Source: Prolixibacteraceae bacterium (GTDB lineage Bacteria > Bacteroidota > Bacteroidia > Bacteroidales > Prolixibacteraceae). Taken from it: DNA of 64,000 nt. Of this stretch, positions 34,649 through 47,606 are shown piece after piece; within the stretch, counting starts at the first letter, position 1; each line of letters starts with the position of its first letter. Location of the stretch: assembly GCA_037129695.1 (NCBI GenBank), contig JBAXUL010000001.1, forward strand, positions 4,057 to 68,056, written 5' to 3'. The translations under genes and the position numbers were made by a program. The notes beneath the pieces were generated by a model that was not told the DNA's origin, made no database searches, and saw nothing but the letters and a program-made list of their open reading frames with translations.

Positions 34649-34688
34649 AAAAAAAGGACAGATACGATAAAGTATCTGTCCTTTTTTT
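34649..34688 (-). terminator. Rho-independent terminator closing the 34.8-47.5 kb operon (bidirectional shape)
   Basis: GGACAGATAC / GTATCTGTCC 10-bp stem (34656-34665 / 34672-34681) with a 6-nt loop, flanked by A7 and T7 runs. Confidence 0.8.
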
Positions 34689-34769: not shown

Positions 34770-36005
34770 TTAGTTGTAATGTTTATTGGGAAATATATTA
34801 ACGGCTAAAAATCCGAATAGTCCGGTCGTGGAAATAATGAAAAGATCAACCAGATGATTTTTGAGTTTTTTCTTTGAATGAAGTATCCAACTGATCTGAA
34901 GAAGAAGCAATAGTAAACTAAAAATCAAAAACATAATACCATCTGAGTATCTGGTTCGGAAGTCAATAAAGCGGCTTAAATCACTATTGAGCGTCATTTC
35001 AAAAGGGAAAATGACGGCGAATATCTTTCCTTCCAGCCGATGGTATTTGTCTTCCCATTTCTCCGAGTATTCATCAATTTTTTTGAATTTGTCGTCCAGC
35101 GCAATGTTCCTGATGTAATTGTCGCCTTCGATCACCACATTGTAGTTGAATAGATCACCTGAAATTTTCAGCTCATCAGTAGTTGGATTGAAACCATCTA
35201 CCGGCAATTTTACCAATTCGTAGGTATCCTGCATTAAAACGTATACCTCGTTTTTGGTTGAGATAAGGTAGGCATAGTATTGTTTGTTTGAAAAATCAAC
35301 ACATTCTATCCAAAGAAAGGACAAATCGGCTGGGATCCCAACTCGCTTTACATACGGTTTTCCCCCTTCCATTTTTAGGTGAAAAAGCTGTTGCTGAGCA
35401 TCTGCGATCAGGTAGCCTTCATCACAACTTTTTTTGGTTGTTGGTATTCCTGCAATAATCCTTGCGGGAAATGCAAATCCTTTTTTGGTCAGGGCTTCAG
35501 TGTAAGCAGTACTTTTCCCTTCGATCAGCTTGTTTGTTTTAGCATCCAGAAATTCGAACTGATTTCTGATTCTGAAATAGTCATCCGGCATCTCCAGATT
35601 AACCCGGCCTGATGCGGATTCGAACAAGGGGTAGAGTCCTGCCTGAGGTGCATCCAGGGTCTTTGGCTGAAACCTATAGTTGGACCTTGCTTTACGAAGC
35701 AGGTGAATGTCCATTTCGACACCGTTGATGGAGTCGGGCATCGTGCCGGAGGTAGCCAACTGCATAAAAAACATCATAGGAAGTTTTTTTTCATATTCTT
35801 CCCTTGTGTATTTATTTCCTTTGAGATCCTGGCGAATCATGGTTGTACCCGGCCTTTGGATCATATAGTTTTTCTCGGTGCAACTGTAGGTGATGACAGG
35901 AGCATAAACGGGATGCTCCATGATGGTCCAGTAGAGTTTTGGAAGGGTTATCGATCCGACAATCACTGCGGTCAAAATCAGAACATATCTGCTGATAGCT
36001 GTCAT
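34770..36005 (-). CDS. Membrane-anchored accessory protein of the ABC-2 system (DUF4857-like, from memory)
   Basis: 411 aa. One N-terminal TM helix, a large extracytoplasmic body, and two C-terminal TM helices. The start lies 2 nt after the permease gene stop. Confidence 0.6.
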   Translation of the reverse strand: MTAISRYVLILTAVIVGSITLPKLYWTIMEHPVYAPVITYSCTEKNYMIQRPGTTMIRQDLKGNKYTREEYEKKLPMMFFMQLATSGTMPDSINGVEMDIHLLRKARSNYRFQPKTLDAPQAGLYPLFESASGRVNLEMPDDYFRIRNQFEFLDAKTNKLIEGKSTAYTEALTKKGFAFPARIIAGIPTTKKSCDEGYLIADAQQQLFHLKMEGGKPYVKRVGIPADLSFLWIECVDFSNKQYYAYLISTKNEVYVLMQDTYELVKLPVDGFNPTTDELKISGDLFNYNVVIEGDNYIRNIALDDKFKKIDEYSEKWEDKYHRLEGKIFAVIFPFEMTLNSDLSRFIDFRTRYSDGIMFLIFSLLLLLLQISWILHSKKKLKNHLVDLFIISTTGLFGFLAVNIFPNKHYN

Positions 36006-36007
36006 AA

Positions 36008-36676
36008 TTACATTTCTCCTTTTCTAAAACGATTGGCTGAAAACAACAATGAAAGACTTAAAAAAGCCGTAAGAATGAAAAATTTCATGTTCACGGGTTC
36101 GTACCCGCCCGCACCCGAAGACAACAGGTATTGTGCGATAAACCCGTATGCGACGAGGGCATAGGGTATCCAATATCTCCAAACCGGTTCCAGAACTATG
36201 AACGCGATAAAATAATAGATGGCATATCCGGACAGAAACCAGGGTATGACAGATGGAATGGCTGCATCAACTATTTCCTGAGGAAAATAGTGAAGACTAC
36301 CCATCCAGAACATGCTGAACATTAATCCAAAAGAGACAAAAAGTGATACTGAACCGCATAACATCATGCCAATGAGCATTTTGTTCTCATTAATCGGAAG
36401 GTGGAAGCTTAATTTGATCCTCTTATTGATCGTTTCCGGAAAGTATTGAGCAATGCCCACAGAGAGTCCGATAACCAGGGGGACATACTTAAGCAGGTGA
36501 TAATATTGGTAGCCCATGAAAAGTATGCTGTACCAATAATTGGTTGCGCCACTAAACAGGATGTCATGCTGGACGTTCAGAAAGATGGAGATGAGTGCAG
36601 CCAATCCAATGGTCGTAAAAATTGCCAAAATCCACCTGATTTTTAGCCATTCTTTGAATAATAATGATTTCCACAT
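36008..36676 (-). CDS. ABC-2-type transporter permease (about 6 TM helices)
   Basis: 222 aa, hydrophobic throughout. Lies 4 nt downstream of the ATPase gene. Confidence 0.65.
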   Translation of the reverse strand: MWKSLLFKEWLKIRWILAIFTTIGLAALISIFLNVQHDILFSGATNYWYSILFMGYQYYHLLKYVPLVIGLSVGIAQYFPETINKRIKLSFHLPINENKMLIGMMLCGSVSLFVSFGLMFSMFWMGSLHYFPQEIVDAAIPSVIPWFLSGYAIYYFIAFIVLEPVWRYWIPYALVAYGFIAQYLLSSGAGGYEPVNMKFFILTAFLSLSLLFSANRFRKGEM

Positions 36677-36680
36677 AACT

Positions 36681-37568
36681 TTAGTATTTACCGGTTAATC
36701 CAATAAAAGCATCTTCGAGTGACATCTGTATCTGCCTGAAATTGTTATAAATAATTCCCTGACTGTCCAAAAATGCTCTGATTGATTTTTCTGGTTCATA
36801 AGTATATAATTCTATGCTGTTTTTGATTTTTTCGATGTTGACAACAAACGCTTCTTTTGCCAATTTCTGTACATCTTGTTCTGTTTCAAAACAAAACTGC
36901 CTGAAGGTTTGCATAAACTCATTTACGGGTTTTTGCGCAAGGATCCGATTGTAATCCATGATTAATACATCATCAATCAATCTTTCCATATCCTGAATGA
37001 TGTGTGAGGTGGTGAAGATTGTTTTATTTTCCGCTTTGGCATATTCCCTCAGATAATCAATAAATAGTCTTCGGTAACCCGGATCAAGACCCATCGAGAA
37101 ATCATCCAATATCAACAGATCCGGATCCTGGGCGAGTATCAATCCCAAGGCAACCTGTGATCTCTGTCCACATGACATGGAGGATATTTTCTGATTCGGC
37201 ACGACCTTGAGCTTTTTCATCAATTCCCAATAGGGTTCTCTCTTCCAGTTCGGATAAAATCCCGCATAGAATTTCTCGATCTGGCTGATATTCATGAAGG
37301 AATATTGGATGTGCCCCTCAATCAAAAAGCCGATGCGTGCTTTTGTGGAAGGTGACAAATGCTGGGTGTTTTCATTGTAGATCAGACATTCGCCACTTCT
37401 GGGTTGTAGAAATCCATTGAGAATATTGATTGTTGTCGTTTTTCCTGCACCATTTTTACCCAACAAACCCAGAATACTACCTTCTCTGACATGGATATTC
37501 AGATTTTCGTACACCAATTTCTTGCCGTAATAATGGGTTAGGTTATTGCATTCAATAACGTTGCTCAT
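36681..37568 (-). CDS. ABC transporter ATP-binding protein (ABC-2 subfamily)
   Basis: 295 aa. Walker A GKNGAGKTT, signature-like MSCGQRS, and Walker B LLILDD. Confidence 0.92.
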   Translation of the reverse strand: MSNVIECNNLTHYYGKKLVYENLNIHVREGSILGLLGKNGAGKTTTINILNGFLQPRSGECLIYNENTQHLSPSTKARIGFLIEGHIQYSFMNISQIEKFYAGFYPNWKREPYWELMKKLKVVPNQKISSMSCGQRSQVALGLILAQDPDLLILDDFSMGLDPGYRRLFIDYLREYAKAENKTIFTTSHIIQDMERLIDDVLIMDYNRILAQKPVNEFMQTFRQFCFETEQDVQKLAKEAFVVNIEKIKNSIELYTYEPEKSIRAFLDSQGIIYNNFRQIQMSLEDAFIGLTGKY

Positions 37569-37647
37569 TGCTTTTTTGTATTATTTATATGATCCTTTTA
37601 AATGGAGATTCTTGTAACATCCAGCGGAATTTTTCTTGCTTCATTTG

Positions 37648-39213
37648 TCAGAATATAAATCCAATTTTTCCTGACAAAACTGAGAACCCATCGTTGAGGG
37701 TGATGGATCTCAGGTTGGTATAGTCAAGTGAAAAAAACAACTGATCAATATGCTTGATTTTTACCGGAAAATATCCACAAACCAATTGTCCGCTGAATTT
37801 AAATTGGTTTCCGGCATAATAATTAAAATCTGCAGTGTAAATGTCTTTCATCTGCTTTTTGGTTATTTCGGTAAGATCGGATAAAAGCATTGTTCCGTTC
37901 AGATTTTGAACGTACGAAAATGAAATTCGAGGCGCAAAATGAAAGGATTTCACATAGAGATTTTTTTCAAGGGATAGATCTCCTGTTAAGTTGGTATACT
38001 TTGACGTGAAGATTTCAGGGATGTAATAATAAGTCTCCTCATTTGACAAAAAAGCCAACCCCGACCAAACAGACCAATCCAACTGCCCGGAATCATTGAG
38101 TCGTTGAAATTCGTGACGAAGATTACCGCTGATCCTTCTTCTGTTGAATTTGAGATTCTTCGCAATGGTTACATATTCAGCGATGTTGCCCTTGTAAACT
38201 TTGTCCTGGGTATATTCCGTTCCATCTCCATCAAAGAAACCGGCCGAAATTAGCAGCGTATGAAGCTTTTTATTTTCTCCAAACTTGGCGGTCTCATTGA
38301 GCCTGAAGTCGATTGCCTTCCAGTCACCGCCATACTGTTTGATCACTGCACTTGACCCATCGTTGATCTGCTCCATGCCGTATTTGAACCGCAATTCGCT
38401 GATCAGACGGTTTTTGTTCTGTTTTTTTTCAAATTGTATGGCTCCGAAGTATTCACTCAGGCTTTGAAATCGGCTGTAACTGGTTCCGATCTCTTTGGCA
38501 TAGAATCCAAACCCTTTGAAGAAATAGAAGGCTGGATCCGGATTGTCTGTGATATTCTGCAGGTAACTGATCTCCTCCTGCCTGTTGAGGTAGCCAAGAT
38601 CTAATCCGAGGTTGTAACTCTTTTTATTCCAGATGATTCCGGGGTTAAATAAGAACTGAACCACAGTATTGAGTGGTCGAGGGTCCTTTTGTTTGGCTCC
38701 CACACCAACGAAGTAGTCTATCTTACAGCCGATCATGAGATGCTCGTTCAAAGTGGTTGCTACCCCTCCTGTCAGGGAATAATTCTCTTTTCTGTAGATC
38801 GAATTGCTGATAGAATCCCCCAGGATATAGGGACTTCCCCGGTAAGGGTCATAAGTTCCGTTCCATCTGGAACCTTTTTCCAGTAGGTTGTTGTAGGCAA
38901 AACCTCCGTAGAGCGTGTATTTGCCAATTTTTTTATAACTTTTTGTGGATAAGCTGTAGATCTGATAATTTGAGGGGTCCATCGTTTTATGGTAGCTGCC
39001 GTCTGCATCGTCCATTCCTGCGTAGACACCTACCAGGTTGGGTGTTGAAGTAAAAATCAATCCGGTCATGTTCTCCGTCCCGGACCACAGATTTCTGTAA
39101 TCTGTAATGCGAAAGGAGTTGAAGGTTTTGACTCTCAGACTATCACTGCCATTCACACTGACCACTGTTATGATCAGTATAAAAAGAAACAGATATTTTC
39201 TCAAAATTGTCAT
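37648..39213 (-). CDS. Outer-membrane beta-barrel protein (DUF6850-like, from memory)
   Basis: 521 aa. Signal peptide, Y/G/F-rich alternating strands, and C-terminal ...GKIGFIF. Confidence 0.6.
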   Translation of the reverse strand: MTILRKYLFLFILIITVVSVNGSDSLRVKTFNSFRITDYRNLWSGTENMTGLIFTSTPNLVGVYAGMDDADGSYHKTMDPSNYQIYSLSTKSYKKIGKYTLYGGFAYNNLLEKGSRWNGTYDPYRGSPYILGDSISNSIYRKENYSLTGGVATTLNEHLMIGCKIDYFVGVGAKQKDPRPLNTVVQFLFNPGIIWNKKSYNLGLDLGYLNRQEEISYLQNITDNPDPAFYFFKGFGFYAKEIGTSYSRFQSLSEYFGAIQFEKKQNKNRLISELRFKYGMEQINDGSSAVIKQYGGDWKAIDFRLNETAKFGENKKLHTLLISAGFFDGDGTEYTQDKVYKGNIAEYVTIAKNLKFNRRRISGNLRHEFQRLNDSGQLDWSVWSGLAFLSNEETYYYIPEIFTSKYTNLTGDLSLEKNLYVKSFHFAPRISFSYVQNLNGTMLLSDLTEITKKQMKDIYTADFNYYAGNQFKFSGQLVCGYFPVKIKHIDQLFFSLDYTNLRSITLNDGFSVLSGKIGFIF

Positions 39214-39272
39214 TCGGGTTCCTAGTTTAATAGCGGCACATTTCGAGGAAATGTGCTGCGTTATTGGTTAGG

Positions 39273-40487
39273 TTATTTCTCTACAACCGTCGGATTTACG
39301 CCTGGAGTAGGTGTCACGTCATGCAAGAAATCTGCTGTGGAATTGTTGGTGTCCTTGTAAATTACTCGTCCTCCGACGATCATGTTCGCCTTTCTCCTGA
39401 CTGACTTGGAACTATAGGAACCGGCATCCAGGTAAGTATATCCGGCATCCAGTGTATCAGGAAGTCTTTTGTATCGCTTTGTCTCATCCGCATAGACTAA
39501 TTCTACCGCATCTACTACATTACTTTTGTTAATCATGAAGTATTTGGTGGTGGCGGTGCTGTTGGGAGCAGTCTTGAAGTTGTTTGCGTTGTTTGCGTAA
39601 GTTTGCCAGTCGGTTCCTGTAGGCAAACGGAATATAATGGTAGCGTAACCGTTCACATTGACTGACCAGTCGGTCATCAGAGGTGCAGTGGTATACATCA
39701 AAGTAAGGTTGGGAACACCGGGAGCATCCAGGTCTTTGCCGTTGTCGACATAGGATTCCCATTGTGCATTGGCCAGATTCACAGGTGAAGTTGGATTCCC
39801 GTTGGGGTCGGTAATGTGGTTGATACCATCCTGGGCGATCACCAAACTTTTACCCGGATAAACAGGATGTTCTTTGCCGGTTCCGGGGATCATCCATGCC
39901 TGAAATATGATCGGAAGTTCATCCATAACCGTTCCATCTGTTTTTAGCCAGACATTGGGGGAGGAGGCAATTTGCTGCAGACATCCGATGCAAAGGCCAT
40001 CGGCAAACAGCGTGTCGTTGGAATTGTTGTAAATTTCATGAAATTGGTCTGATGCATAACTTTTTGCATCCGGAGTCTTGGATCCCGCATAATAGATCTC
40101 TTTCAGGATAAATCCCCCCGAATTCTTGGCCAGCACCAAATCCATGTTGATCGGACCATCTTTTGTCAAAACCACATTGTTTTGCACCCCATTGAAAAAG
40201 TATTCGTCCGATCCTACTTTAACCGAAAAATTGCATTTGACACTGTATTTCCCTTCGACAAGAATGACCGAAACTTTTCCCGAGGCATCGCCAAGGATCA
40301 CAGTTTCTCTGCCCGTTTCGGCATTTGTAATCTTTATTTCCACACCGGTAGGCATGGATGCCAGCGTGAACCCCTGGGGGAATGCCAGGGTGACGTCAAC
40401 CTTATAACTCGGGGTGACATCTTTTTTACAGTTGAGCACTGTTAAACCCAAAGTCAGTGCCATTACTAAAACAATTGATCTTTTCAT
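39273..40487 (-). CDS. Surface lipoprotein with an Ig/carboxypeptidase-regulatory-like N-domain and a lamin-tail-like domain (DUF4876-like, from memory)
   Basis: 404 aa. Lipobox LTVLNC and an LTD-like segment GFILKEIYYAGSK...QFHEIYNNSNDTLFADGLCIG. Confidence 0.6.
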   Translation of the reverse strand: MKRSIVLVMALTLGLTVLNCKKDVTPSYKVDVTLAFPQGFTLASMPTGVEIKITNAETGRETVILGDASGKVSVILVEGKYSVKCNFSVKVGSDEYFFNGVQNNVVLTKDGPINMDLVLAKNSGGFILKEIYYAGSKTPDAKSYASDQFHEIYNNSNDTLFADGLCIGCLQQIASSPNVWLKTDGTVMDELPIIFQAWMIPGTGKEHPVYPGKSLVIAQDGINHITDPNGNPTSPVNLANAQWESYVDNGKDLDAPGVPNLTLMYTTAPLMTDWSVNVNGYATIIFRLPTGTDWQTYANNANNFKTAPNSTATTKYFMINKSNVVDAVELVYADETKRYKRLPDTLDAGYTYLDAGSYSSKSVRRKANMIVGGRVIYKDTNNSTADFLHDVTPTPGVNPTVVEK

Positions 40488-40506
40488 GGTTTTTTATTAT
40501 TTTGGT

Positions 40507-43359
40507 TTAGAATACTAGTTTTAATTCAGCTCCAAAATAGGCGGTTTGATTCATCCTGACATAGGAATCCGCACGAGCTGTTCGATAGATGGGCCTTTGG
40601 TTAAGAAGGTTGTTGGCATAGAAGGAGAACTGGGCACGATCGCCAATTTCTTTGGTAAGTTTTAGATTTATTTGCCATGTTACCGGATAACTTTCTGTGG
40701 TAAAATAGTTGTTGTACAGGGAATTAACCAAAAAGCTAAAAGGCATTTGGAAACTATTGGCTGATTGCCACGCATGGTATTGCATCTGTTTGTCGAGGTA
40801 TCCGACCGGATCGACGTATACTTTGCTTGCATGTTCGTATTGTCCATAAATTTTTTCATTATTGGAATTCAGTGTATATGCCACATTTTGTCCCTGGTAG
40901 TTCCAGTAGTAAGCAGTTTTGTCGATCCAGATAATTTGTGCTTTTACCGAAACAATCATCCTGACCTTGGGCAGGTGGGTGGTGATGTTGATGTTCGAAT
41001 TCAGCCTTTGTTTTAAATTTCCTTTTCCACCTGGCATCAACGCAACGTAAGGGAACTTTTCACCCAAGTAGGATGCATTGGGTCTTTCCTGATAAGGTGC
41101 CACATTTTCAGTTTTTTGAATGTGGTAGTAAGCGCCATCTACCATTAAGGTCGTTTTAAGACTCTTTAACTTGCCAAAGTTCAGGATGTATTCTATTCCC
41201 TTCTTGGTGACGTCGTAGTTGTTCTGCGGACTGTTATAGTAATGAAACTCCTGTTTTTTTGCGTAGGGAAGGGTTTTGGTTGTTCCATTTTCAACGTAGG
41301 TAATCGCTCCGTTTTGGTATTGCGGTTGTTTTCCGATACCCGATACCTGATCCCATTTGTTGTACTCCATCGCAAAAAATTGACTTTCCCAGGTATATCC
41401 ATTGATTATCTTTTCGGAGAATCCTGTAACGGATACCTTAATTCCTTTTACCTTCATGTCAACTCCTGCCTCAAATTTGGTATTGGAAATCGGTTTTAAC
41501 GCAGGATTACTTGTGTCAGTGATCACTTTCGTGGTAATGACGATGAGATCCGGATAGTAGTTGAAACTCATCTCGTCCTGATAGGATTTGTCAGGATACA
41601 TGAAAATCATGGATGGGTTTTTCGAGGTCTTTCCGTATCCGCCGTGAAAGGACAAATCTTGCATCAACAGATCTTCCCTTTTTTGAAAGAGATCGTAGGT
41701 GATGTTTATCCTGGGTTCCAGGTTGATGAATCCATCTGTTGTAAAAAGGCCTTTGGGTAGCATATTGTTGTACCGAATACCAAACTGGGATTTCAGTGAA
41801 CCCGAACCTATAGGCAGAACGAAGAGGTCCTCGGCGTAAAATGCAAGATCACGGCTCATGGGTATATCATTGAAAGCCCTCGGTCTGGTTGAAGAAGCAC
41901 CGGTAGGTGGTTTTGTCAGGTCATATATTTTTCCGGCCCCATTGTTGCCGGCGCTTTTCCATTCTGCTCCCACCATCAGGTTGTTACTGGCTTTACCGAA
42001 ATCGTTGGCGACTGTTCCTTTCACGACTCCATAAAAGTTGAAGGGTTGTCCGTCTATTCTTAGATCGCTGATGTACCTTGTTGGTAAAATAGAACCTACG
42101 GCCTCTCCGGAAACCATAGCTGTTGGCAAGGCGGTGGCTCCTGCATTGGTAGTCACCCTGTGTTCAAAGACCTCCTGTTTGGTGTAATCACCTGAAAAAT
42201 TATAGGATATGTTGTTGAGCCATGGTTTTCTCACAGACCATTTTCCGAAAAGTTTTAATCCTGCATTTTCTTCTTTTTCCTGCAAAATTTCCTCTCTTAA
42301 CAGGTCCGGGTCATTCTTTGCTTTATCAAGGGTATTGTAGTAGTTGATTTTTACATTGATACTTAATGGTTTGGAGTCAGTAAACAAAGTGTTGGAGTAA
42401 CCCAACTGCCCGGTAAGTCTTTTGTAACTTTTTGAAGGTTTACGAAGGTCGTCGTAGGAATGTGCGTAATCTACATCAATATTCAAAGCCCCATTTTTAG
42501 TGCCGGGAAGAAGGAACCCTTTGGATAGGGTCAATTGCTTTATTTTAGGGTCTGTTTTGATCCCTGCATGTAGTTTTGATTTACCTGCTTTGGTGCGGAC
42601 AAGAACAATTCCGGTAGTTAGGTCGCCGTATTCGACGGATGGAATACCTCTGATAACTTCAACGGATTCAATGTTGTCGGTAGGAATTTTTCTGAGGTCG
42701 ATTCCTTGTCCGGAGGTTGAATAAGCCTGAATTGTGCCACTTCCTGCCGTATTGAGGGTTTGCAAGTTGGCATCATTGTTCAGTGGAGTTCCATCCAGAA
42801 CGATGGCCGTACCCATGGCGCTGTTGTTATCCGGTTTGCTGGCGGTATTGATATCCCGGATGGTAATCTGATTGGAGGAAGACATATTTGGATTGAGGGT
42901 AATTTGTCCCGGTACCAGTTGCATCACATCCGCGAGGCTACTTGGCTGCACATGCGTCAGCGCGGTACTTTCAATCTTGGAGGAGGAACTCATACTGGTA
43001 TGCTCCCGGGCTATTACAACGACTTCCTCCAAAGCCAGAGAGGATTGTTGCATGACAACTGTTACCTCGGTAACAGAGCTGTTGATGGAGATAGGAAGTT
43101 CGTTTTTTTCATAACCCAAACAAACTACCTGCAAGGTGTATTTTCCGGCAGGTACATTGTTGAAAATAAAATCTCCCTGGTTATTGCTTGTTGTCCACCT
43201 GTTTAATTCAAGTAATTGGACAGATGCCAATTCAATCTTAAATCCAGTTTTACTTTCAATGATATGACCATTCAGCCTGAAACCATTCTGGGCAAACGTA
43301 CCTACAGAAAGTAATGTACATAAAGGCAACAGAATATGTTTTTTAATCAGATCAAGCAT
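40507..43359 (-). CDS. TonB-dependent receptor with a carboxypeptidase-regulatory-like N-terminal domain
   Basis: 950 aa. Signal peptide, CarboxypepD_reg-like module (GHIIESKTGFKIELASV...GKYTLQVVCLGY), plug region (IESVEVIRGIPSVEYGDLTTGIVLV), and C-terminal ...AELKLVF. Confidence 0.88.
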   Translation of the reverse strand: MLDLIKKHILLPLCTLLSVGTFAQNGFRLNGHIIESKTGFKIELASVQLLELNRWTTSNNQGDFIFNNVPAGKYTLQVVCLGYEKNELPISINSSVTEVTVVMQQSSLALEEVVVIAREHTSMSSSSKIESTALTHVQPSSLADVMQLVPGQITLNPNMSSSNQITIRDINTASKPDNNSAMGTAIVLDGTPLNNDANLQTLNTAGSGTIQAYSTSGQGIDLRKIPTDNIESVEVIRGIPSVEYGDLTTGIVLVRTKAGKSKLHAGIKTDPKIKQLTLSKGFLLPGTKNGALNIDVDYAHSYDDLRKPSKSYKRLTGQLGYSNTLFTDSKPLSINVKINYYNTLDKAKNDPDLLREEILQEKEENAGLKLFGKWSVRKPWLNNISYNFSGDYTKQEVFEHRVTTNAGATALPTAMVSGEAVGSILPTRYISDLRIDGQPFNFYGVVKGTVANDFGKASNNLMVGAEWKSAGNNGAGKIYDLTKPPTGASSTRPRAFNDIPMSRDLAFYAEDLFVLPIGSGSLKSQFGIRYNNMLPKGLFTTDGFINLEPRINITYDLFQKREDLLMQDLSFHGGYGKTSKNPSMIFMYPDKSYQDEMSFNYYPDLIVITTKVITDTSNPALKPISNTKFEAGVDMKVKGIKVSVTGFSEKIINGYTWESQFFAMEYNKWDQVSGIGKQPQYQNGAITYVENGTTKTLPYAKKQEFHYYNSPQNNYDVTKKGIEYILNFGKLKSLKTTLMVDGAYYHIQKTENVAPYQERPNASYLGEKFPYVALMPGGKGNLKQRLNSNINITTHLPKVRMIVSVKAQIIWIDKTAYYWNYQGQNVAYTLNSNNEKIYGQYEHASKVYVDPVGYLDKQMQYHAWQSANSFQMPFSFLVNSLYNNYFTTESYPVTWQINLKLTKEIGDRAQFSFYANNLLNQRPIYRTARADSYVRMNQTAYFGAELKLVF

Positions 43360-43386
43360 GGTAACATCAATTAATCATCAGGGATT

Positions 43387-45294
43387 TTAGAATTTAAACA
43401 TGTTGGCCATTTTCTCTTTTTCACCTGTGCTGAAGGTGATAGAGAGGGAATCACACTTCAGGGAGTTCCAGATTTTGGTTGGATTGGTGAGGGTATCCAC
43501 ATAAATTATCTCGAAATTTATCTGTTGTATCGTGTCGAGTGCCGATTTAAATCCAACAACGCCGTCATCGTTCGACAGGTGACTGATCAGATAAGGAAGT
43601 GCCTTGGTGTTGTATTTGTTGGTGCCCAAAGGAACAACCATGGTGTCAAGAAGCGATGTACTGTAATTTGCAATGTTGTTGAACTCTTTGACGATCGGCT
43701 GAAACATTTTCCTGACATAATCCCCTTTCGAAATTGTTGAGAATTGAAGCTTGTTGACGACTTTGTATGAAATCGCTATATTTTTCTTCTTGCCACCCGA
43801 TTCTACTGCCAATTGATCGGATTCGAGCTCTTTAATCAGGTTTTCTTCCTTAATATCAGAATTGCCGGGGAAATAAATTCTGATCTGAACCGGACAATTG
43901 AATTCACTTTCAAGACCAATTGCCGTTGTTTTTTCTTTGAGTAAGATGGACAGATAGGTAAAGTCCATCGGATCAAAGAAGTTATCAAGTAACAATGAGA
44001 CCACTTTAACCTCTTCAATCCCTTTGTCAAGCAGTCGTATCGGCGTTTTCATCGGTGTGAAGAGTTCGGATTGCAGTTTTAATTTATTGGTGACCGCAGG
44101 ATCGAAATATACTTTTACCGTGTGCGTGGTCACAAAAGTTGCCACTCCCATGACACCAGGCACCTCTTTCATTTTAGCAGCAAAGGCCATAGAACTTCCA
44201 TAACATTTTACATTTTTCAAACCCGACTGGGTAAAGACTTCTGCTTTCTTCATTTCATTGCTGTCGTACCATTTTTGGTCGATTGTTGGCAATTCCCATA
44301 CAGTACTCAGGAAAAATCCAACCACGATTAACACCAGTACTGCGATTGGGGGCAACCATCTCAGTTTGTTGGAGTGGTTGATTTGTATGGTCTCTTTTAC
44401 AGGGCAAACCGTTATACATTCACTGCATAAATTGCAATCGATATGATTAACCACCTTCATGCTGGCTACATCAATGGCTTGTGGACATTTTCTGCTGCAA
44501 AGCTGACAATCTGTGCATGTGGTTTCGTTTCGTGTAATCCTGGCAACCGGTATGAAGAGTAGTCGTGTTCCCCAAATTTCCAGGATATATCCTCCAAGAC
44601 AAAGAATTCCCAATGGCCATGCAAAATGAATGGTAAAGTTCAGTTTAATGAGCACAATGTAGATGAGGATGACGGCAAGGAAAAACCAGGCAAATTTGAA
44701 CAGGTTGGAAATGGCTCCAAGCGGGCAAAGGTATTTACACCACAACAGTCGGATGAAAACGGAACCGATGATGACAATTGCGATTGCAAGTGAAGCATAC
44801 AGGAGAACCACATCCATGCTAAAGCCTGAGGCGATCGCGTAATAAGGGTCATATTTCTTGCAGAACAGTTCATTGGAACCAAGGGTAAAATAGAAGGTGA
44901 TGAAAAGCAGCAGGTATTTGAGTGATCTCATCAAAGTGTCGGTAAGACCAGATAGGGTAATTCTTACTTTGATTTTTTCACCAAGCTTTCCAAGCCATTC
45001 ACTGATCGTTCCAATGGGACAGATATAGGAGCAAAACAGTTTACTGAACAATACGACCCCAATCATCAACATAACTCCCATGGCAATCTGGGCGGAAGTC
45101 ATGGTACATGCCAATGAACCGTTAAGCAGGAAACTGCTGAGGGCTTGTATTCCACCGAAAGGACAATAGGCCTCAAAATCGGGTGTGTAATCATCTTTAA
45201 AAAATGGCAATGCGGCCAGAATGACAACTGCCACGATGAAAGTCCACTGAATGACGATTCTGGGAAGGTTTGAATTTTTTAGATTGCTTTTCAT
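43387..45294 (-). CDS. Membrane polyferredoxin (NapH/NosR/MauN-like 4Fe-4S-binding protein) with a roughly 300-aa C-terminal extension
   Basis: CPFGG, CSYICPIG and CKYLCPLG motifs at TM helix ends. Two ferredoxin motifs, CTDCQLCSRKCP and CNLCSECITVCP, then another TM helix and an uncharacterised C-terminal part. ATG at 45294 preferred over the TTG at 45339. Confidence 0.8.
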   Translation of the reverse strand: MKSNLKNSNLPRIVIQWTFIVAVVILAALPFFKDDYTPDFEAYCPFGGIQALSSFLLNGSLACTMTSAQIAMGVMLMIGVVLFSKLFCSYICPIGTISEWLGKLGEKIKVRITLSGLTDTLMRSLKYLLLFITFYFTLGSNELFCKKYDPYYAIASGFSMDVVLLYASLAIAIVIIGSVFIRLLWCKYLCPLGAISNLFKFAWFFLAVILIYIVLIKLNFTIHFAWPLGILCLGGYILEIWGTRLLFIPVARITRNETTCTDCQLCSRKCPQAIDVASMKVVNHIDCNLCSECITVCPVKETIQINHSNKLRWLPPIAVLVLIVVGFFLSTVWELPTIDQKWYDSNEMKKAEVFTQSGLKNVKCYGSSMAFAAKMKEVPGVMGVATFVTTHTVKVYFDPAVTNKLKLQSELFTPMKTPIRLLDKGIEEVKVVSLLLDNFFDPMDFTYLSILLKEKTTAIGLESEFNCPVQIRIYFPGNSDIKEENLIKELESDQLAVESGGKKKNIAISYKVVNKLQFSTISKGDYVRKMFQPIVKEFNNIANYSTSLLDTMVVPLGTNKYNTKALPYLISHLSNDDGVVGFKSALDTIQQINFEIIYVDTLTNPTKIWNSLKCDSLSITFSTGEKEKMANMFKF

Positions 45295-45414
45295 ACTTTT
45301 TTTATAATACCATTTGAACTCTTTGAATAAAATAACCAATTGCTATTTTGAGAGCGAAGAGTCGGTTATGGTTGTTTGTTAGGAGTAATTGGGTTCAAAT
45401 GAGTGGGTGAAAGA

Positions 45415-45810
45415 TTAAAATAATTTTTCGTGATCGACATTTAGGTGATGTATTTCTTTGAGTTGAATGAGTGCTTCATTCTTTTTTGAGTTTTTGGAAA
45501 ACAGTATTTGTGTATTGGCATGGAAACCCAGCATGATACCGAGTACGATGGCTGCAGCTGCAACAGTTGAAAATTGAAAAAACAGGGACAGATCTCTCTT
45601 TTTAGATCGTTCTCCAATTTCCAGCTTGGTATGGTCCAATATTTTATCCAGAAGGCCTGGGGGAAGGTCAATGGGTTCATCTAAAAATAGCATGGAACCA
45701 TTCACTTGTTCCAAAAGGGTTGAACATTGAGGGCATTGATCCAGATGTTCCTGAAATTCAATGCCGGACAAATCTTCCTTTATCAATTGTATAGAATGGG
45801 CACATTTCAT
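45415..45810 (-). CDS. Putative anti-sigma factor (zf-HC2 type, single TM helix)
   Basis: 131 aa. H-x3-C-x2-C motif (HLDQCPQC) near the N-terminus and one TM helix (FSTVAAAAIVLGIMLGF). Confidence 0.62.
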   Translation of the reverse strand: MKCAHSIQLIKEDLSGIEFQEHLDQCPQCSTLLEQVNGSMLFLDEPIDLPPGLLDKILDHTKLEIGERSKKRDLSLFFQFSTVAAAAIVLGIMLGFHANTQILFSKNSKKNEALIQLKEIHHLNVDHEKLF

Positions 45811-45909
45811 TCAATCGGAAATTTTATTGGTTAATGATGGTTTCACATCAATTGTATGGGTTCCTTTTAAAGACGCACAAAAAAAAAAGATCTGGCGCGG
45901 AATCAAAAA

Positions 45910-46419
45910 TTAATTATTTAGCTGGTCCCTTCTGGAGCACTCTTTTTTATTACAATAGCTGCATTGGTTGCCCAGTTCCATCATTTCTTTCAGGAGTTCG
46001 TTGAGTTTGATTTTTTGTTCGTCTGTGCAAATGCTCTTAATATTTTCAAAATGCCTGATGGTTTGCCTTTTCAGACCCGTTCTGTATTTTCCGATTGAGA
46101 CGGCAATGGAATCCATCTTTGCCTTAGAAGGGTGGTCGGAAGTCATCTCTTCAACCAGTTTGAAGTTATAGGCGCACTCCATGTCAAGCAGCGATTGATA
46201 AATTCTGAGTACCTCATTGTCTATCACCGACATTTTCTTGAACTGATCCTGTGTCAGGTTAAGTTCCTCTTTCAGGAATTGGTCCGAATTGTATTTCTCA
46301 AGCGATGGCGTATTTCCTTGTCTGTTGAGCAGCAGAATTGTTCCAAATGCCGAGATATTAATCATCAATAAAAAGATGTTGATCCATTGGATGATTCGGT
46401 GCTTTTTAGCTTTTTCCAT
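45910..46419 (-). CDS. Membrane-anchored periplasmic LTXXQ-motif protein (CpxP/Spy/ZraP-like 'heavy-metal sensor' type)
   Basis: 169 aa from ATG 46419, one nt after the sigma-factor stop. TM helix, LNLTQDQFKKM and CTDEQKIKL motifs, and a Cys-rich tail CSYCNKKEC. Confidence 0.62.
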   Translation of the reverse strand: MEKAKKHRIIQWINIFLLMINISAFGTILLLNRQGNTPSLEKYNSDQFLKEELNLTQDQFKKMSVIDNEVLRIYQSLLDMECAYNFKLVEEMTSDHPSKAKMDSIAVSIGKYRTGLKRQTIRHFENIKSICTDEQKIKLNELLKEMMELGNQCSYCNKKECSRRDQLNN

Positions 46420-46420
46420 T

Positions 46421-47002
46421 TTATTCAGACTGATTTTTAAAATAGTGTAACAGCGATTTCCGCAGGTTGGTCTTGGCTCTGTAGATGAGCGATTCAACCG
46501 AGATAAGCGAAATTCCCATTTGCTCACAAATTTCTTTTTGTGAGTAATTTTCGAATTTGTGCAGCAGGATTACCTTTTTTTGATTTTCGGGTAACCTATC
46601 AATGGCTTGTAAGATTATTTTTCTTGATTCCTCCTGTTCAAGTTTTTGGGAAGGAGTATTCGAATCGACTTGCTTGATTGTTCTGTCGATGGAAGAGGAA
46701 GCTGTTTCAATGCTAACACTGTTGGTCAGTTTGACAGGATTGTGTTTGCGCAGAAAACTCAACGATTTGTTCAGTGCTATTTTATAAATCCAACCTGAGA
46801 GGTCGTTGTCTTTCTGGATGAGCGCGATGGACCGGAATACCTCTACAAATACCTCCTGGGTGAGATCTTCAGAATCAGTCTTGGACCGGACAAGCCTGAA
46901 ACAGGTCACATAGACCAATCGCTGGTATTTTATTACCAAGGATCCGAATGCCTGTCTGTCATGTTTCAGGATCTTTTCTACCAGTATGCGGTCTTCTTCC
47001 AT
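46421..47002 (-). CDS. ECF (sigma-70 family group 4) RNA polymerase sigma factor
   Basis: 193 aa. Region 2 (DLTQEVFVEVFRS...) and region 4 (YSQKEICEQMGISLISVESLIYRAKTNL). Confidence 0.92.
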   Translation of the reverse strand: MEEDRILVEKILKHDRQAFGSLVIKYQRLVYVTCFRLVRSKTDSEDLTQEVFVEVFRSIALIQKDNDLSGWIYKIALNKSLSFLRKHNPVKLTNSVSIETASSSIDRTIKQVDSNTPSQKLEQEESRKIILQAIDRLPENQKKVILLHKFENYSQKEICEQMGISLISVESLIYRAKTNLRKSLLHYFKNQSE

Positions 47003-47021
47003 TTAGATAGACTATACTGAC

Positions 47022-47483
47022 TTAGTTCCCGACCTTAAATCTGCCTTTTGTATCGTCTTTGTAAACCCATCCTTTGTTTTTGAGGTATTTGTCTGCCTCT
47101 TCTCTGGTTAGAAATAGTTCGCCTTCCTTTTCCCACCAGGTACTTCCTGTTGAAATTCCCAGTTTGTTACAGTCTTTGGTTTTTGCCAGATTGATGGTCT
47201 CCAGTGCTTTCATCTTTAGACTGTCATTCCGGATGGATACAATGACTGCCTGGATAGATTTTCCATATTTAACAGATTGATTCTTGTTGGCCAAAACGAT
47301 GAGTCCAAAACATTTTGAACCTTCTTGTGCCCATGTTCCAATCCGCCCATTCAATCTATCATTGAGTTTTGTTACCTCTTCCTTGTAAGTTTCTTTCGGT
47401 TTGACGGTAGATTTTGGATTTGAATGACAGCTGGTCAATGAATAAATCACTAATGAGAGGAAAAAAATTCGGGATAGAAGCAT
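47022..47483 (-). CDS. Lipoprotein of unknown function
   Basis: 153 aa. Lipobox SLTSC. Ends 19 nt upstream of the ECF sigma gene on the same strand. Confidence 0.6.
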   Translation of the reverse strand: MLLSRIFFLSLVIYSLTSCHSNPKSTVKPKETYKEEVTKLNDRLNGRIGTWAQEGSKCFGLIVLANKNQSVKYGKSIQAVIVSIRNDSLKMKALETINLAKTKDCNKLGISTGSTWWEKEGELFLTREEADKYLKNKGWVYKDDTKGRFKVGN

Positions 47484-47606
47484 GGCCTTAGTTATTGGTA
47501 TTAAATAGGTAGACGCAATTTAATTCAAAATCTGGCGATTTGTACCTTGATTTCCCGAAAATAATCAAAAACCATCCATGATTCAGTTGCAGGAACTTAA
47601 AATCTT

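Follow-up and report, generated by a model that had tools for sequence, protein, structure and literature searches.

We analyzed a 64,000-nucleotide stretch of DNA from a Prolixibacteraceae bacterium (contig JBAXUL010000001.1; hereafter the window) that carries, at positions 34770-47483 of the minus strand, an eleven-gene locus combining a TonB-dependent receptor (TBDR), an iron-sulfur polyferredoxin, an ATP-binding cassette (ABC) module and an extracytoplasmic function (ECF) sigma factor. The locus is a real, conserved and coherent unit. It most likely serves to take up a metal complex in a TonB-dependent manner and then to release the metal reductively in the periplasm, with iron as the likeliest metal and copper as the main alternative. 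In the specific form that we favor, to which we assign a probability of about one half, a ferric complex is imported and its metal is released by means of a seven-transmembrane-helix Fe-S protein with HMA-like periplasmic domains. Reductive acquisition of a metal or of a metal-bound ligand had been proposed in the initial annotation of the window, and it is the reading best backed by genomic context and the literature. The genes, from first to last, are as follows.

47022..47483, minus strand: lipoprotein, 153 aa; lipobox ...LTSC, conserved Cys58 and Cys105, no Pfam family
46421..47002, minus strand: ECF sigma factor, 193 aa; Sigma70_r2 and Sigma70_r4_2 matches
45910..46419, minus strand: LTXXQ-like membrane-anchored periplasmic helical protein, 169 aa; N-terminal transmembrane segment 13-31, weak LTXXQ/CpxP likeness
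45415..45810, minus strand: anti-sigma-like protein, 131 aa, single-pass; N-terminal HxxxCxxC, transmembrane segment 76-94, short periplasmic tail
43387..45294, minus strand: polyferredoxin, 635 aa; two Fer4_5 matches and a Fer4 dicluster match
40507..43359, minus strand: TBDR, 950 aa, non-SusC; CarbopepD_reg_2 (E = 4e-17) and Plug (E = 1e-12)
39273..40487, minus strand: DUF4876 lipoprotein, 404 aa; Pfam E = 3e-46, PDB 4q1z 'putative lipoprotein' E = 1e-38
37648..39213, minus strand: DUF6850 protein, 521 aa; Pfam E = 1e-73, 249.1 bits against a cut-off of 27
36681..37568, minus strand: ABC ATPase, 295 aa; ABC_tran match, ABC-2 exporter-like class
36008..36676, minus strand: polytopic membrane protein, 222 aa, presumed permease; at least four hydrophobic segments
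34770..36005, minus strand: DUF4857 protein, 411 aa; Pfam E = 4e-87, 292.5 bits against a cut-off of 25

Families were assigned with Pfam and NCBIfam models judged against their cut-offs. The ECF sigma factor, the Fer4_5 polyferredoxin, the Plug/CarboxypepD_reg TBDR, DUF4876, DUF6850, the ABC ATPase and DUF4857 all scored above them; the three DUF families, which the initial annotation had named correctly, passed the Pfam gathering threshold.

Conservation and modularity of the locus

A scan seeded on DUF4876, with one genome per species, yielded 80 loci. Open reading frames were called in these loci and assigned by BLASTP to the eleven window proteins, and the counts given here are over the 51 well-covered loci. 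The survey extended over Prolixibacteraceae, Draconibacterium, Sunxiuqinia, Maribellus, Rikenellaceae, Marinifilaceae, Sphingobacteriales, Chitinophagaceae and Chlorobi-like lineages. The outer-membrane trio TBDR-DUF4876-DUF6850 was present in 51 of the 51 loci, whereas the ABC trio ATPase-permease-DUF4857 was found in 40 of 51 in an all-or-none manner, which leaves 11 loci that have the outer-membrane trio without the ABC module. The polyferredoxin gene was present in 34/51 loci. The sigma factor and the LTXXQ-like gene occurred together in 27/51, and polyferredoxin was encoded in all 27 of these.

The complete set (lipoprotein, sigma factor, LTXXQ-like protein, polyferredoxin, outer-membrane trio and ABC trio) was found in 26 of the 51 loci, each from a different species; the genes come in two orders, and the flanks vary. 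In the order of the window (Prolixibacteraceae), the regulators are followed by polyferredoxin, the outer-membrane trio and the ABC trio; in the Rikenellaceae/Bacteroidales order, the ABC trio is placed between polyferredoxin and the TBDR. Contig look-ups for three polyferredoxin homologues likewise recovered the whole gene set in other genomes. In two of these loci, L001 and L002, the flanking genes differ, and the locus therefore behaves as a unit. This arrangement is far beyond chance. The statement in the initial annotation that part of this gene set is syntenic in other Bacteroidota, and its expectation that they co-occur outside this genome, were thus borne out, with TBDR-DUF4876-DUF6850 as the conserved core.

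The polyferredoxin and its exchange with PepSY_TM proteins

The polyferredoxin contains two CxxxCP motifs and an eight-cysteine dicluster motif for two [4Fe-4S] clusters (C260-C297). Its topology was derived from an AlphaFold model (mean pLDDT 72.7; about 85 over residues 340-635) together with hydropathy and charge counts. Seven transmembrane helices were predicted with the N-terminus inside, such that the CxxxCP and dicluster motifs would be cytoplasmic. Three invariant cysteines (C44, C63 and C145) would lie on periplasmic loops, and a C-terminal domain of ~300 aa, predicted to consist of tandem ferredoxin-like beta-alpha-beta-beta-alpha-beta units, would be periplasmic. Both the modeled topology and the cofactor motifs are in keeping with a protein that conducts electrons across the membrane.

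When 1.84 billion representatives were searched exhaustively with HMMER, just 141 relatives of the C-terminal domain were recovered, nearly all of them at residues ~335-635 of proteins of ~640 aa. Because these relatives nearly all share both position and protein length, the domain is specific to the polyferredoxin family. Its first periplasmic unit is weakly similar to heavy-metal-associated (HMA) domains: phmmer matched it to 1opz (E = 0.25), and a Foldseek search of the whole model against the PDB, which gave no significant match, had the CopA HMA tandem as its best hit (E = 0.04). As these matches are not significant, the HMA likeness is weakly grounded. An invariant cysteine occupies the HMA loop position and the canonical HMA CxxC is absent; Met375, Cys467 and His572 are also invariant in the periplasmic domain.

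The initial annotation had called this protein NapH/NosR-like. Its kinship stood at the level of the Fer4_5 superfamily, and the family models for NapH, NosR and CcoG did not fit. Against the NapH/MauN models TIGR02163 and NF007013 it scored ~47 bits (cut-offs 213-234); it has seven predicted transmembrane helices rather than four, and neither the window locus nor the related loci contain nap genes. The NosR model NF046105 gave 32 bits against a cut-off of 1000, the FMN_bind domain typical of NosR was not matched, and no nosZ, nosD or nosL was found nearby. Similarly, Fer4_18 and FixG_C, expected of CcoG/FixG, were not among the Pfam matches at E ≤ 0.01. The polyferredoxin shares with NapH, NosR and CcoG a polytopic membrane part, CxxxCP motifs and a cytoplasmic 2x[4Fe-4S] domain, and members of these families act as electron donors for periplasmic metalloenzymes or as Cu(II) reductases. 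In contrast to their four to six transmembrane helices, it is predicted to have seven, as well as the ~300-aa periplasmic domain found only in its own family. We conclude that the polyferredoxin represents a previously undescribed family of the Fer4_5 superfamily. In the literature, we found no paper that ties polyferredoxin to these TBDR-DUF4876/DUF4857 systems.

Seven loci contain the ABC trio without polyferredoxin. Two of them, L024 (Sunxiuqinia) and L036, have PepSY_TM-like open reading frames directly after the DUF4857 gene. A search seeded on the DUF4857 subfamily of the L024/L036 type showed that cultured members of Marinilabiliales, Butyricimonas and Proteiniphilum have it too. In L085 (Marinifilum) and L087 (Proteiniphilum), the gene order is TBDR, DUF4876, DUF6850, ATPase, permease, DUF4857, a lipoprotein of 175-180 aa and a PepSY_TM-like protein of 183-184 aa; L086 (Butyricimonas) ends after a 178-aa protein and has no PepSY_TM-like gene. 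Thus, L024, L036, L085 and L087 all encode a PepSY_TM-like protein and lack polyferredoxin. Immediately after the L087 locus, and on the same strand, is a fused feoAB ferrous-iron transporter gene (L087:12247-14763).

PepSY_TM proteins sit in the inner membrane, carry two haems and reduce ferrisiderophores on the periplasmic side, as exemplified by FoxB (bioRxiv 10.1101/2021.01.28.428567); XusC is a further periplasmic ferrisiderophore reductase of the PepSY_TM type. The window locus encodes no PepSY_TM (PF03929) protein and is not itself a system of the Fox/Xus type. Because PepSY_TM-like proteins stand in its place elsewhere, the polyferredoxin appears to fill the slot of a periplasm-directed reductase. 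An electron-transfer part that can be exchanged between polyferredoxin and PepSY_TM therefore points to reductive metal release in the periplasm.

Expression data are available for relatives in two cultured species. Iron depletion induces BT3625-33 of Bacteroides thetaiotaomicron 37- to 128-fold and PG1019-22 of Porphyromonas gingivalis 21- to 214-fold (PMC10434189), and excess hemin strongly lowers expression of the P. gingivalis DUF4876 gene (log2 -5.4; PMC10470040), which is co-regulated with HmuY and flavodoxin in further data sets. As late as March 2026, PG1019/PG1020 were described as an uncharacterized transport system (PMC13096392). The statement in the initial annotation that these genes had never been assigned a function therefore holds for function as such; it left out the published induction by iron and haem starvation and a lid prediction for DUF4876 described below. 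By Pfam family, BT3625-BT3633 share with the window locus the TBDR, DUF4876, the ABC ATPase, a small membrane protein and DUF4857, in the gene order of Marinifilum L085 and including its two DUF4876 copies; PG1019-PG1022 share DUF4876 and the TBDR. They differ from it in that PepSY_TM (BT3628/29, two genes in B. thetaiotaomicron) replaces polyferredoxin, in the absence of the sigma factor, sensor and anti-sigma module and of the 153-aa lipoprotein, and in that BT3630, which takes the position of DUF6850, is annotated as a fimbrillin-family protein.

A precedent for the logic proposed here is found in Bradyrhizobium japonicum, in which the siderophore brought in by a TonB-dependent transporter (TBDT) undergoes periplasmic reduction by FsrB, the ion enters through FeoAB, and homeostasis is kept by an exporter of periplasmic siderophore (PMC10760861). 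As in XusABC, FoxA/FoxB and FsrB+FeoAB+ExsFGH, a TBDT is combined in the window locus with an inner-membrane electron-transfer protein, joined by a predicted lid lipoprotein in parallel with Xus; none of these systems has a binding-protein-dependent importer, the ferrous ion being left to Feo. The candidate exporter of the window locus has its counterpart in B. japonicum in ExsFGH, which is dedicated to clearing periplasmic siderophore. The reductase in the window would be an Fe-S polyferredoxin (Fer4_5) instead of a di-haem PepSY_TM protein or FsrB, the candidate for export is an ABC-2-like module paired with a beta-propeller-like protein rather than a transporter of the resistance-nodulation-division type, and DUF6850 and the lipoprotein are extra partners. 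The locus falls outside NapH, NosR, CcoG, NosDFY, GldAFG, SusCD and FecIR, and it probably works like the reductive iron uptake systems Xus, Fox and Fsr.

In our model, the non-SusC TBDR, with the DUF4876 surface lipoprotein as its cap, would carry a metal complex, most likely a ferric chelate, into the periplasm. Cytoplasmic electrons would pass through the two [4Fe-4S] clusters and the two CxxxCP motifs of the polyferredoxin to its periplasm-facing cysteine triad and HMA-like domain. The metal would be reduced and freed from its ligand at this domain, a step that a PepSY_TM-type protein would carry out in the sister loci, and the reduced ion would then enter the cell via a general transporter such as FeoB.

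Outer-membrane, ABC and regulatory modules

The TBDR qualifies as a member of its family and ends in ...LKLVF, with phenylalanine as the last residue. TonB_dep_Rec_b-barrel matched its L001 and L002 orthologues, whereas the barrel of the window protein fell short of E = 0.01; sequence and profile searches against the PDB found no relative at E ≤ 0.01. It is not a SusC/RagA transporter with a SusD partner, as no SusC/RagA (TIGR04056) match was among the NCBIfam hits and the adjoining lipoprotein is DUF4876. The initial annotation was correct that the locus contains no SusD partner, periplasmic binding protein or glycoside hydrolase. Its 'lamin-tail-like' label for the adjoining lipoprotein had no Pfam support and gives way to DUF4876 (158.3 bits against a cut-off of 27.9). 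DUF4876 proteins have been predicted by AlphaFold-Multimer to cap non-SusC TBDTs as lids (bioRxiv 10.1101/2023.03.17.533168).

The DUF6850 protein has a signal peptide, lacks internal transmembrane helices and ends in ...GFIF, conserved as GxxF, features that make it a probable second outer-membrane beta-barrel; it would act as a second outer-membrane component beside the TBDR and DUF4876. Searches against the PDB returned nothing useful for it and no detectable kinship to TolC-type or other known exit ducts. The gene for the 153-aa lipoprotein is the first gene in 36/51 loci, including loci without the sigma factor. This protein is not homologous to the 175-aa lipoprotein of the PepSY_TM sister loci, as only the signal peptides align.

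The ABC ATPase is nearest to the NCBIfam models PmtA, GldA, DrrA and NodI, all below cut-off (GldA, 125 bits against 403). The 222-aa protein accompanies the ATPase and DUF4857 in 40 of 40 loci. It had been labeled an ABC-2 permease, for which there is no Pfam support; searches of Pfam and the PDB gave no relative, the sole PDB match (PEN-2) being spurious. Its gene is separated from its neighbors by gaps of 4 nt and 2 nt, and coupled translation is therefore suggested. Sequence and profile searches of DUF4857 against the PDB found nothing useful. Its AlphaFold model (pLDDT 83.7) has one transmembrane helix at the N-terminus, three helices at the C-terminus and, between them, a periplasmic domain resembling a beta-propeller, and Foldseek matched this model to the beta-propellers PorZ, WD40 and BtuG (E = 1e-4 to 1e-3). 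The earlier comparison of DUF4857 with NosD or GldG is therefore replaced by a membrane-anchored, beta-propeller-like protein, a fold distinct from the NosD beta-helix and from GldG.

The trio does resemble NosDFY and GldAFG in having an ATPase of broadly the same class, a small permease and a third protein, probably coupled to them in translation, that is mostly periplasmic and anchored by terminal transmembrane helices. It differs from them in fold, and the locus has no NosZ, NosL or gliding genes. Both ligand export and force transmission are compatible with the evidence. The ATPase, permease and DUF4857 might form an ABC-2-like machine that expels emptied or unprocessed ligand from the periplasm, or they might perform ATP-driven mechanical work on the periplasmic step.

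Two promoter-like motifs mark the regulatory part of the locus.

47511..47537, minus strand: P1, ECF-type promoter-like motif CGCCAGAT-N12-TGCGTCT, 27 nt upstream of the lipoprotein ATG
45871..45897, minus strand: P2, second copy of the motif, 60 nt upstream of the anti-sigma ATG

These were the only two matches to CGCCAGAT-N12-TGCGTCT in the 64-kb window, both on the coding strand, compared with an expected 0.07. A P1-type motif is also found 5' of the lipoprotein gene in L003, L008, L014, L017 and L028, and 23 of 26 near-matches in 1.49 Mb of related loci fall at P1 or P2 positions. In loci of the other gene order, a related motif, CCGCARG-N16-TGTCT, is present in one copy in each of 14 loci, always between the LTXXQ-like gene and a small anti-sigma-like gene, equivalent to P2. 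We take the spacing of the window motif and its GTCT-type downstream element to be consistent with ECF promoter architecture, and we infer that the motif is read by the ECF sigma factor of the locus. ECF control, as asserted in the initial annotation, is in line with a conserved motif that occurs in the window solely before the first gene and the anti-sigma gene.

The sigma factor itself scored 107 bits against TIGR02937 (cut-off 42.9) and has both Sigma70_r2 and Sigma70_r4_2. The zf-HC2 and LTXXQ labels of its two partners were less well supported. The anti-sigma-like protein had no Pfam (zf-HC2) match and reached only 26 bits with an NCBIfam antisigma model (cut-off 100; E = 8e-6), with its HxxxCxxC motif, here HLDQCPQC, kept in 11 of 12 close orthologues. 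Its periplasmic tail comprises 27 residues with a conserved HHLN. The LTXXQ-like protein scored 16 bits against PF07813 (cut-off 24.3; E = 0.02) and is not placed in the LTXXQ/CpxP/Spy family. Orthologue alignment revealed five conserved cysteines in it (C82, C131 and C153-x2-C156-x4-C161), and its profile matched VirG-like 5ihf (E = 0.0015) and, not significantly but over nearly its full length, NccX 4clv (E = 0.41).

The three genes are comparable to CnrYXH/NccYXH in their layout and predicted topologies (ECF sigma factor, single-pass anti-sigma factor and anchored periplasmic sensor). They differ from them in the five conserved cysteines of the sensor and in the genes regulated, which are of an uptake type and not an efflux pump; judged by sequence, the trio resembles CnrYXH in layout only. 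As the anti-sigma factor nearly lacks a periplasmic domain, a separate sensor is plausible. In the proposed mechanism, the two promoters would be read by the ECF sigma factor of the locus, the sigma factor would be held by the small ZAS-type anti-sigma factor, and the membrane-anchored, cysteine-rich periplasmic sensor would set the state of the latter.

Cell-surface signaling of the FecI/FecR type does not apply to the window, in which the 131-aa anti-sigma factor has no FecR domain and the N-terminus of the TBDR is CarboxypepD_reg. In Pseudoflavitalea and Pedobacter (L075:5144-9982 and L077:5881-9982), a FecR-domain gene lies directly 5' of the gene for a longer TBDR (~1010 aa) that belongs to the same outer-membrane trio, and in L075 an ECF sigma gene adjoins it, such that classical cell-surface signaling replaces the cysteine-rich sensor module in these two loci. 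Four Draconibacterium loci without the sigma module and polyferredoxin (L025-L027 and L029) have a Fur-box-like sequence, AATAATATGATAAT, before the TBDR gene; the conserved element, AATAATATGATAA(T/C) with a TGATAAT half-site, lies ~55-70 nt upstream of the TBDR start, and its conservation is weak evidence because the four species are closely related.

Two further elements were identified in the DNA, the first of which closes the locus.

34649..34688, either strand: bidirectional intrinsic terminator, a perfect 17-nt inverted repeat with a 6-nt loop and A/T runs on either side
39233..39259, strand not assigned: hairpin with 12-nt arms (GCGGCACATTTC / GAAATGTGCTGC) within the 59-nt DUF4876-DUF6850 spacer

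The strong terminator reported in the initial annotation was recovered by a repeat finder 82 nt downstream of DUF4857; a generic terminator scan missed it. The hairpin at 39233-39259 could have a role in differential expression inside the operon. A generic sigma-70 promoter scan gave counts equal to those of shuffled controls, and its result was not used. The neighbors of the locus are housekeeping genes, with asnB downstream and pssA, psd, cdsA and ftsH upstream. In L002, from a Prolixibacteraceae genome, the region directly upstream of the locus (L002:1-4616) encodes a KAP NTPase, QatB, QueC and TatD and looks like Qat-type anti-phage defence, which has no bearing on the function of the locus but illustrates how its flanks vary among genomes.

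All eleven minus-strand genes lie where the initial annotation had them; after two start corrections, the intergenic gaps are 1-120 nt instead of 1-99 nt. The mechanically called GTG start of the LTXXQ-like gene at 46527 overlaps the sigma gene by 107 nt (46421-46527) and is unlikely; ATG 46419, 1 nt past the sigma stop codon, is most likely the start because the orthologue alignment supports it. For polyferredoxin, ATG 45294 is most likely and TTG 45339 is unlikely, because the resulting 635-aa protein matches database entry P0001 from a Prolixibacteraceae metagenome-assembled genome, with 100% identity.

Metal identity and alternative explanations

Several observations weigh against reductive iron uptake. 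Seven loci hold the ABC trio without polyferredoxin, and in five of them the locus contains no gene for a reductase. Several of the PepSY_TM-like matches are weak or faint, that of L036 being narrowly over the Pfam cut-off. The iron-regulated homologues are distant (~30-45% identity, or related at the family level only), their loci use PepSY_TM and not polyferredoxin, and transposon mutants of B. thetaiotaomicron BT3632/33 had no clear phenotype in 519 conditions (bioRxiv 10.1101/2023.03.17.533168). ABC-2-type ATPases are typical of exporters. Finally, the HMA-like folds, the invariant cysteine, methionine and histidine residues, the kinship with CcoG, NosR and NapH and the weakly CnrX/NccX-like sensor point equally to copper or another thiophilic metal, and PepSY_TM proteins serve copper acquisition too (PMC13038864).

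Uptake of copper or another thiophilic metal is the alternative that survives best, though we consider it unlikely. The TBDR would import chelated copper, the polyferredoxin would reduce Cu(II) to Cu(I) on its HMA-like domains, and the ABC-2/DUF4857 module and the lipoprotein would pass the ion to cuproenzymes of the periplasm or membrane, much as NosA, NosR, NosDFY and NosL or CrtA, CrpH and CcoG do. The first HMA-like repeat with its invariant loop cysteine, together with Met375, Cys467 and His572, would suit such a role, as would the weak match of the sensor profile to NccX; however, both the HMA and the NccX similarities are below statistical significance, and the canonical CxxC is missing. 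The Fer4_5 superfamily takes in the cupric reductase CcoG (PMC7558416). In Bordetella pertussis, an operon of a TBDT and a PepSY_TM protein imports copper, and its crpH overlaps functionally with ccoG, which encodes a Fer4_5 protein (PMC12914433, PMC13038864); copper therefore stays open as the substrate metal. Set against this are the expression data for homologues, all of which come from iron or haem limitation, the feoAB gene adjoining the locus in L087, and the absence of a cuproenzyme, NosZ, NosL and NosD from all 87 loci. On balance, iron remains the likeliest metal.

A nutrient other than a metal, either peptide-like or derived from protein or tetrapyrrole (for example a porphyrin or bilin), is quite improbable; here the polyferredoxin would carry out a reductive step unrelated to metal release. 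This idea draws on genes that accompany the core elsewhere. A HEAT-repeat protein of ~720 aa is encoded after DUF6850 in 36/51 loci (its cluster, c0, comprises L003:17689-19857 and 51 other loci). Its PBS-type repeats lie in the C-terminal half; in the N-terminal half, the motifs H-x-HHHG and D-A-C-(F)-N-G-S (DAC) are invariant and Peptidase_C25 is matched weakly, which suggests a caspase/gingipain-like Cys-His dyad. M16, S9 and S46 peptidases or an APC-family permease stand beside the trio in distant loci, and the P. gingivalis homologues respond to haem supply. The window, however, has a 79-nt spacer at the position of the HEAT-repeat gene, a search of the window found no such protein, and the locus has neither the peptidases nor the APC permease. 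The peptidase neighbors vary among loci and are not conserved, and the alternation with PepSY_TM and the adjacency of feoAB point to metal reduction.

The positions of these accessory genes were as follows. In L064:2088-7146 and L080:2131-7158, a copy of the HEAT-repeat protein gene and a peptidase gene (M16 in L064, S9 in L080) lie immediately upstream of the TBDR gene, and in L057 an S46 peptidase gene follows polyferredoxin. In the polyferredoxin-less loci L024:15111-17344, L071:15028-17092, L074:14006-16239, L078 and L081-L084, a protein of ~290-360 aa without Pfam family is encoded after the outer-membrane module, followed in three of them by an APC-family amino-acid permease; these genes may provide an alternative inner-membrane route.

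The least likely alternative is export or detoxification, in which a CnrYXH-like switch for metal or redox stress would control removal of a toxic metal, metallophore or redox-active compound by the ABC-2-like transporter through a DUF6850 exit while the polyferredoxin detoxifies by reduction: the exporter classes nearest to the ATPase (PmtA, GldA, DrrA and NodI), the lack of a periplasmic binding protein, the CnrYXH-like architecture of the sigma module and the predicted second barrel in every locus are in its favor, but the TBDR with its lid lipoprotein is an import device and belongs to the core in 51/51 loci, the outer-membrane trio stands without the ABC module in 11 loci, homologues respond to metal starvation and not to excess, and DUF6850 shows no detectable kinship to known exit ducts.

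TonB-dependent metal-complex uptake with periplasmic reductive release thus remains our preferred reading. Tentatively, and with less confidence than we place in that reading, the 635-aa protein may found a new class of transmembrane Fe-S metal reductases that replaces the haem-based PepSY_TM proteins in TonB-dependent metal uptake, working with a hitherto unrecognized ABC-2/beta-propeller mechanotransducer and a cysteine-rich sensor that reports the periplasmic metal or redox state to an ECF sigma factor. The novelty lies in the polyferredoxin family, whose periplasmic domain is unique, and in the ABC/beta-propeller module, which is uncharacterized. The comparison with relatives defines an invariant core and an exchangeable electron-transfer part, and the candidate sigma-factor promoter makes the regulon directly testable. 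The TBDR-DUF4876 and ABC/DUF4857 modules rank near the top for induction by iron or haem starvation in a model gut commensal and a periodontal pathogen. If the model is true, the locus would provide a haem-independent route for periplasmic metal reduction, and DUF4876, DUF6850 and DUF4857, families that are widespread in Bacteroidota, would gain a function and a mechanism.

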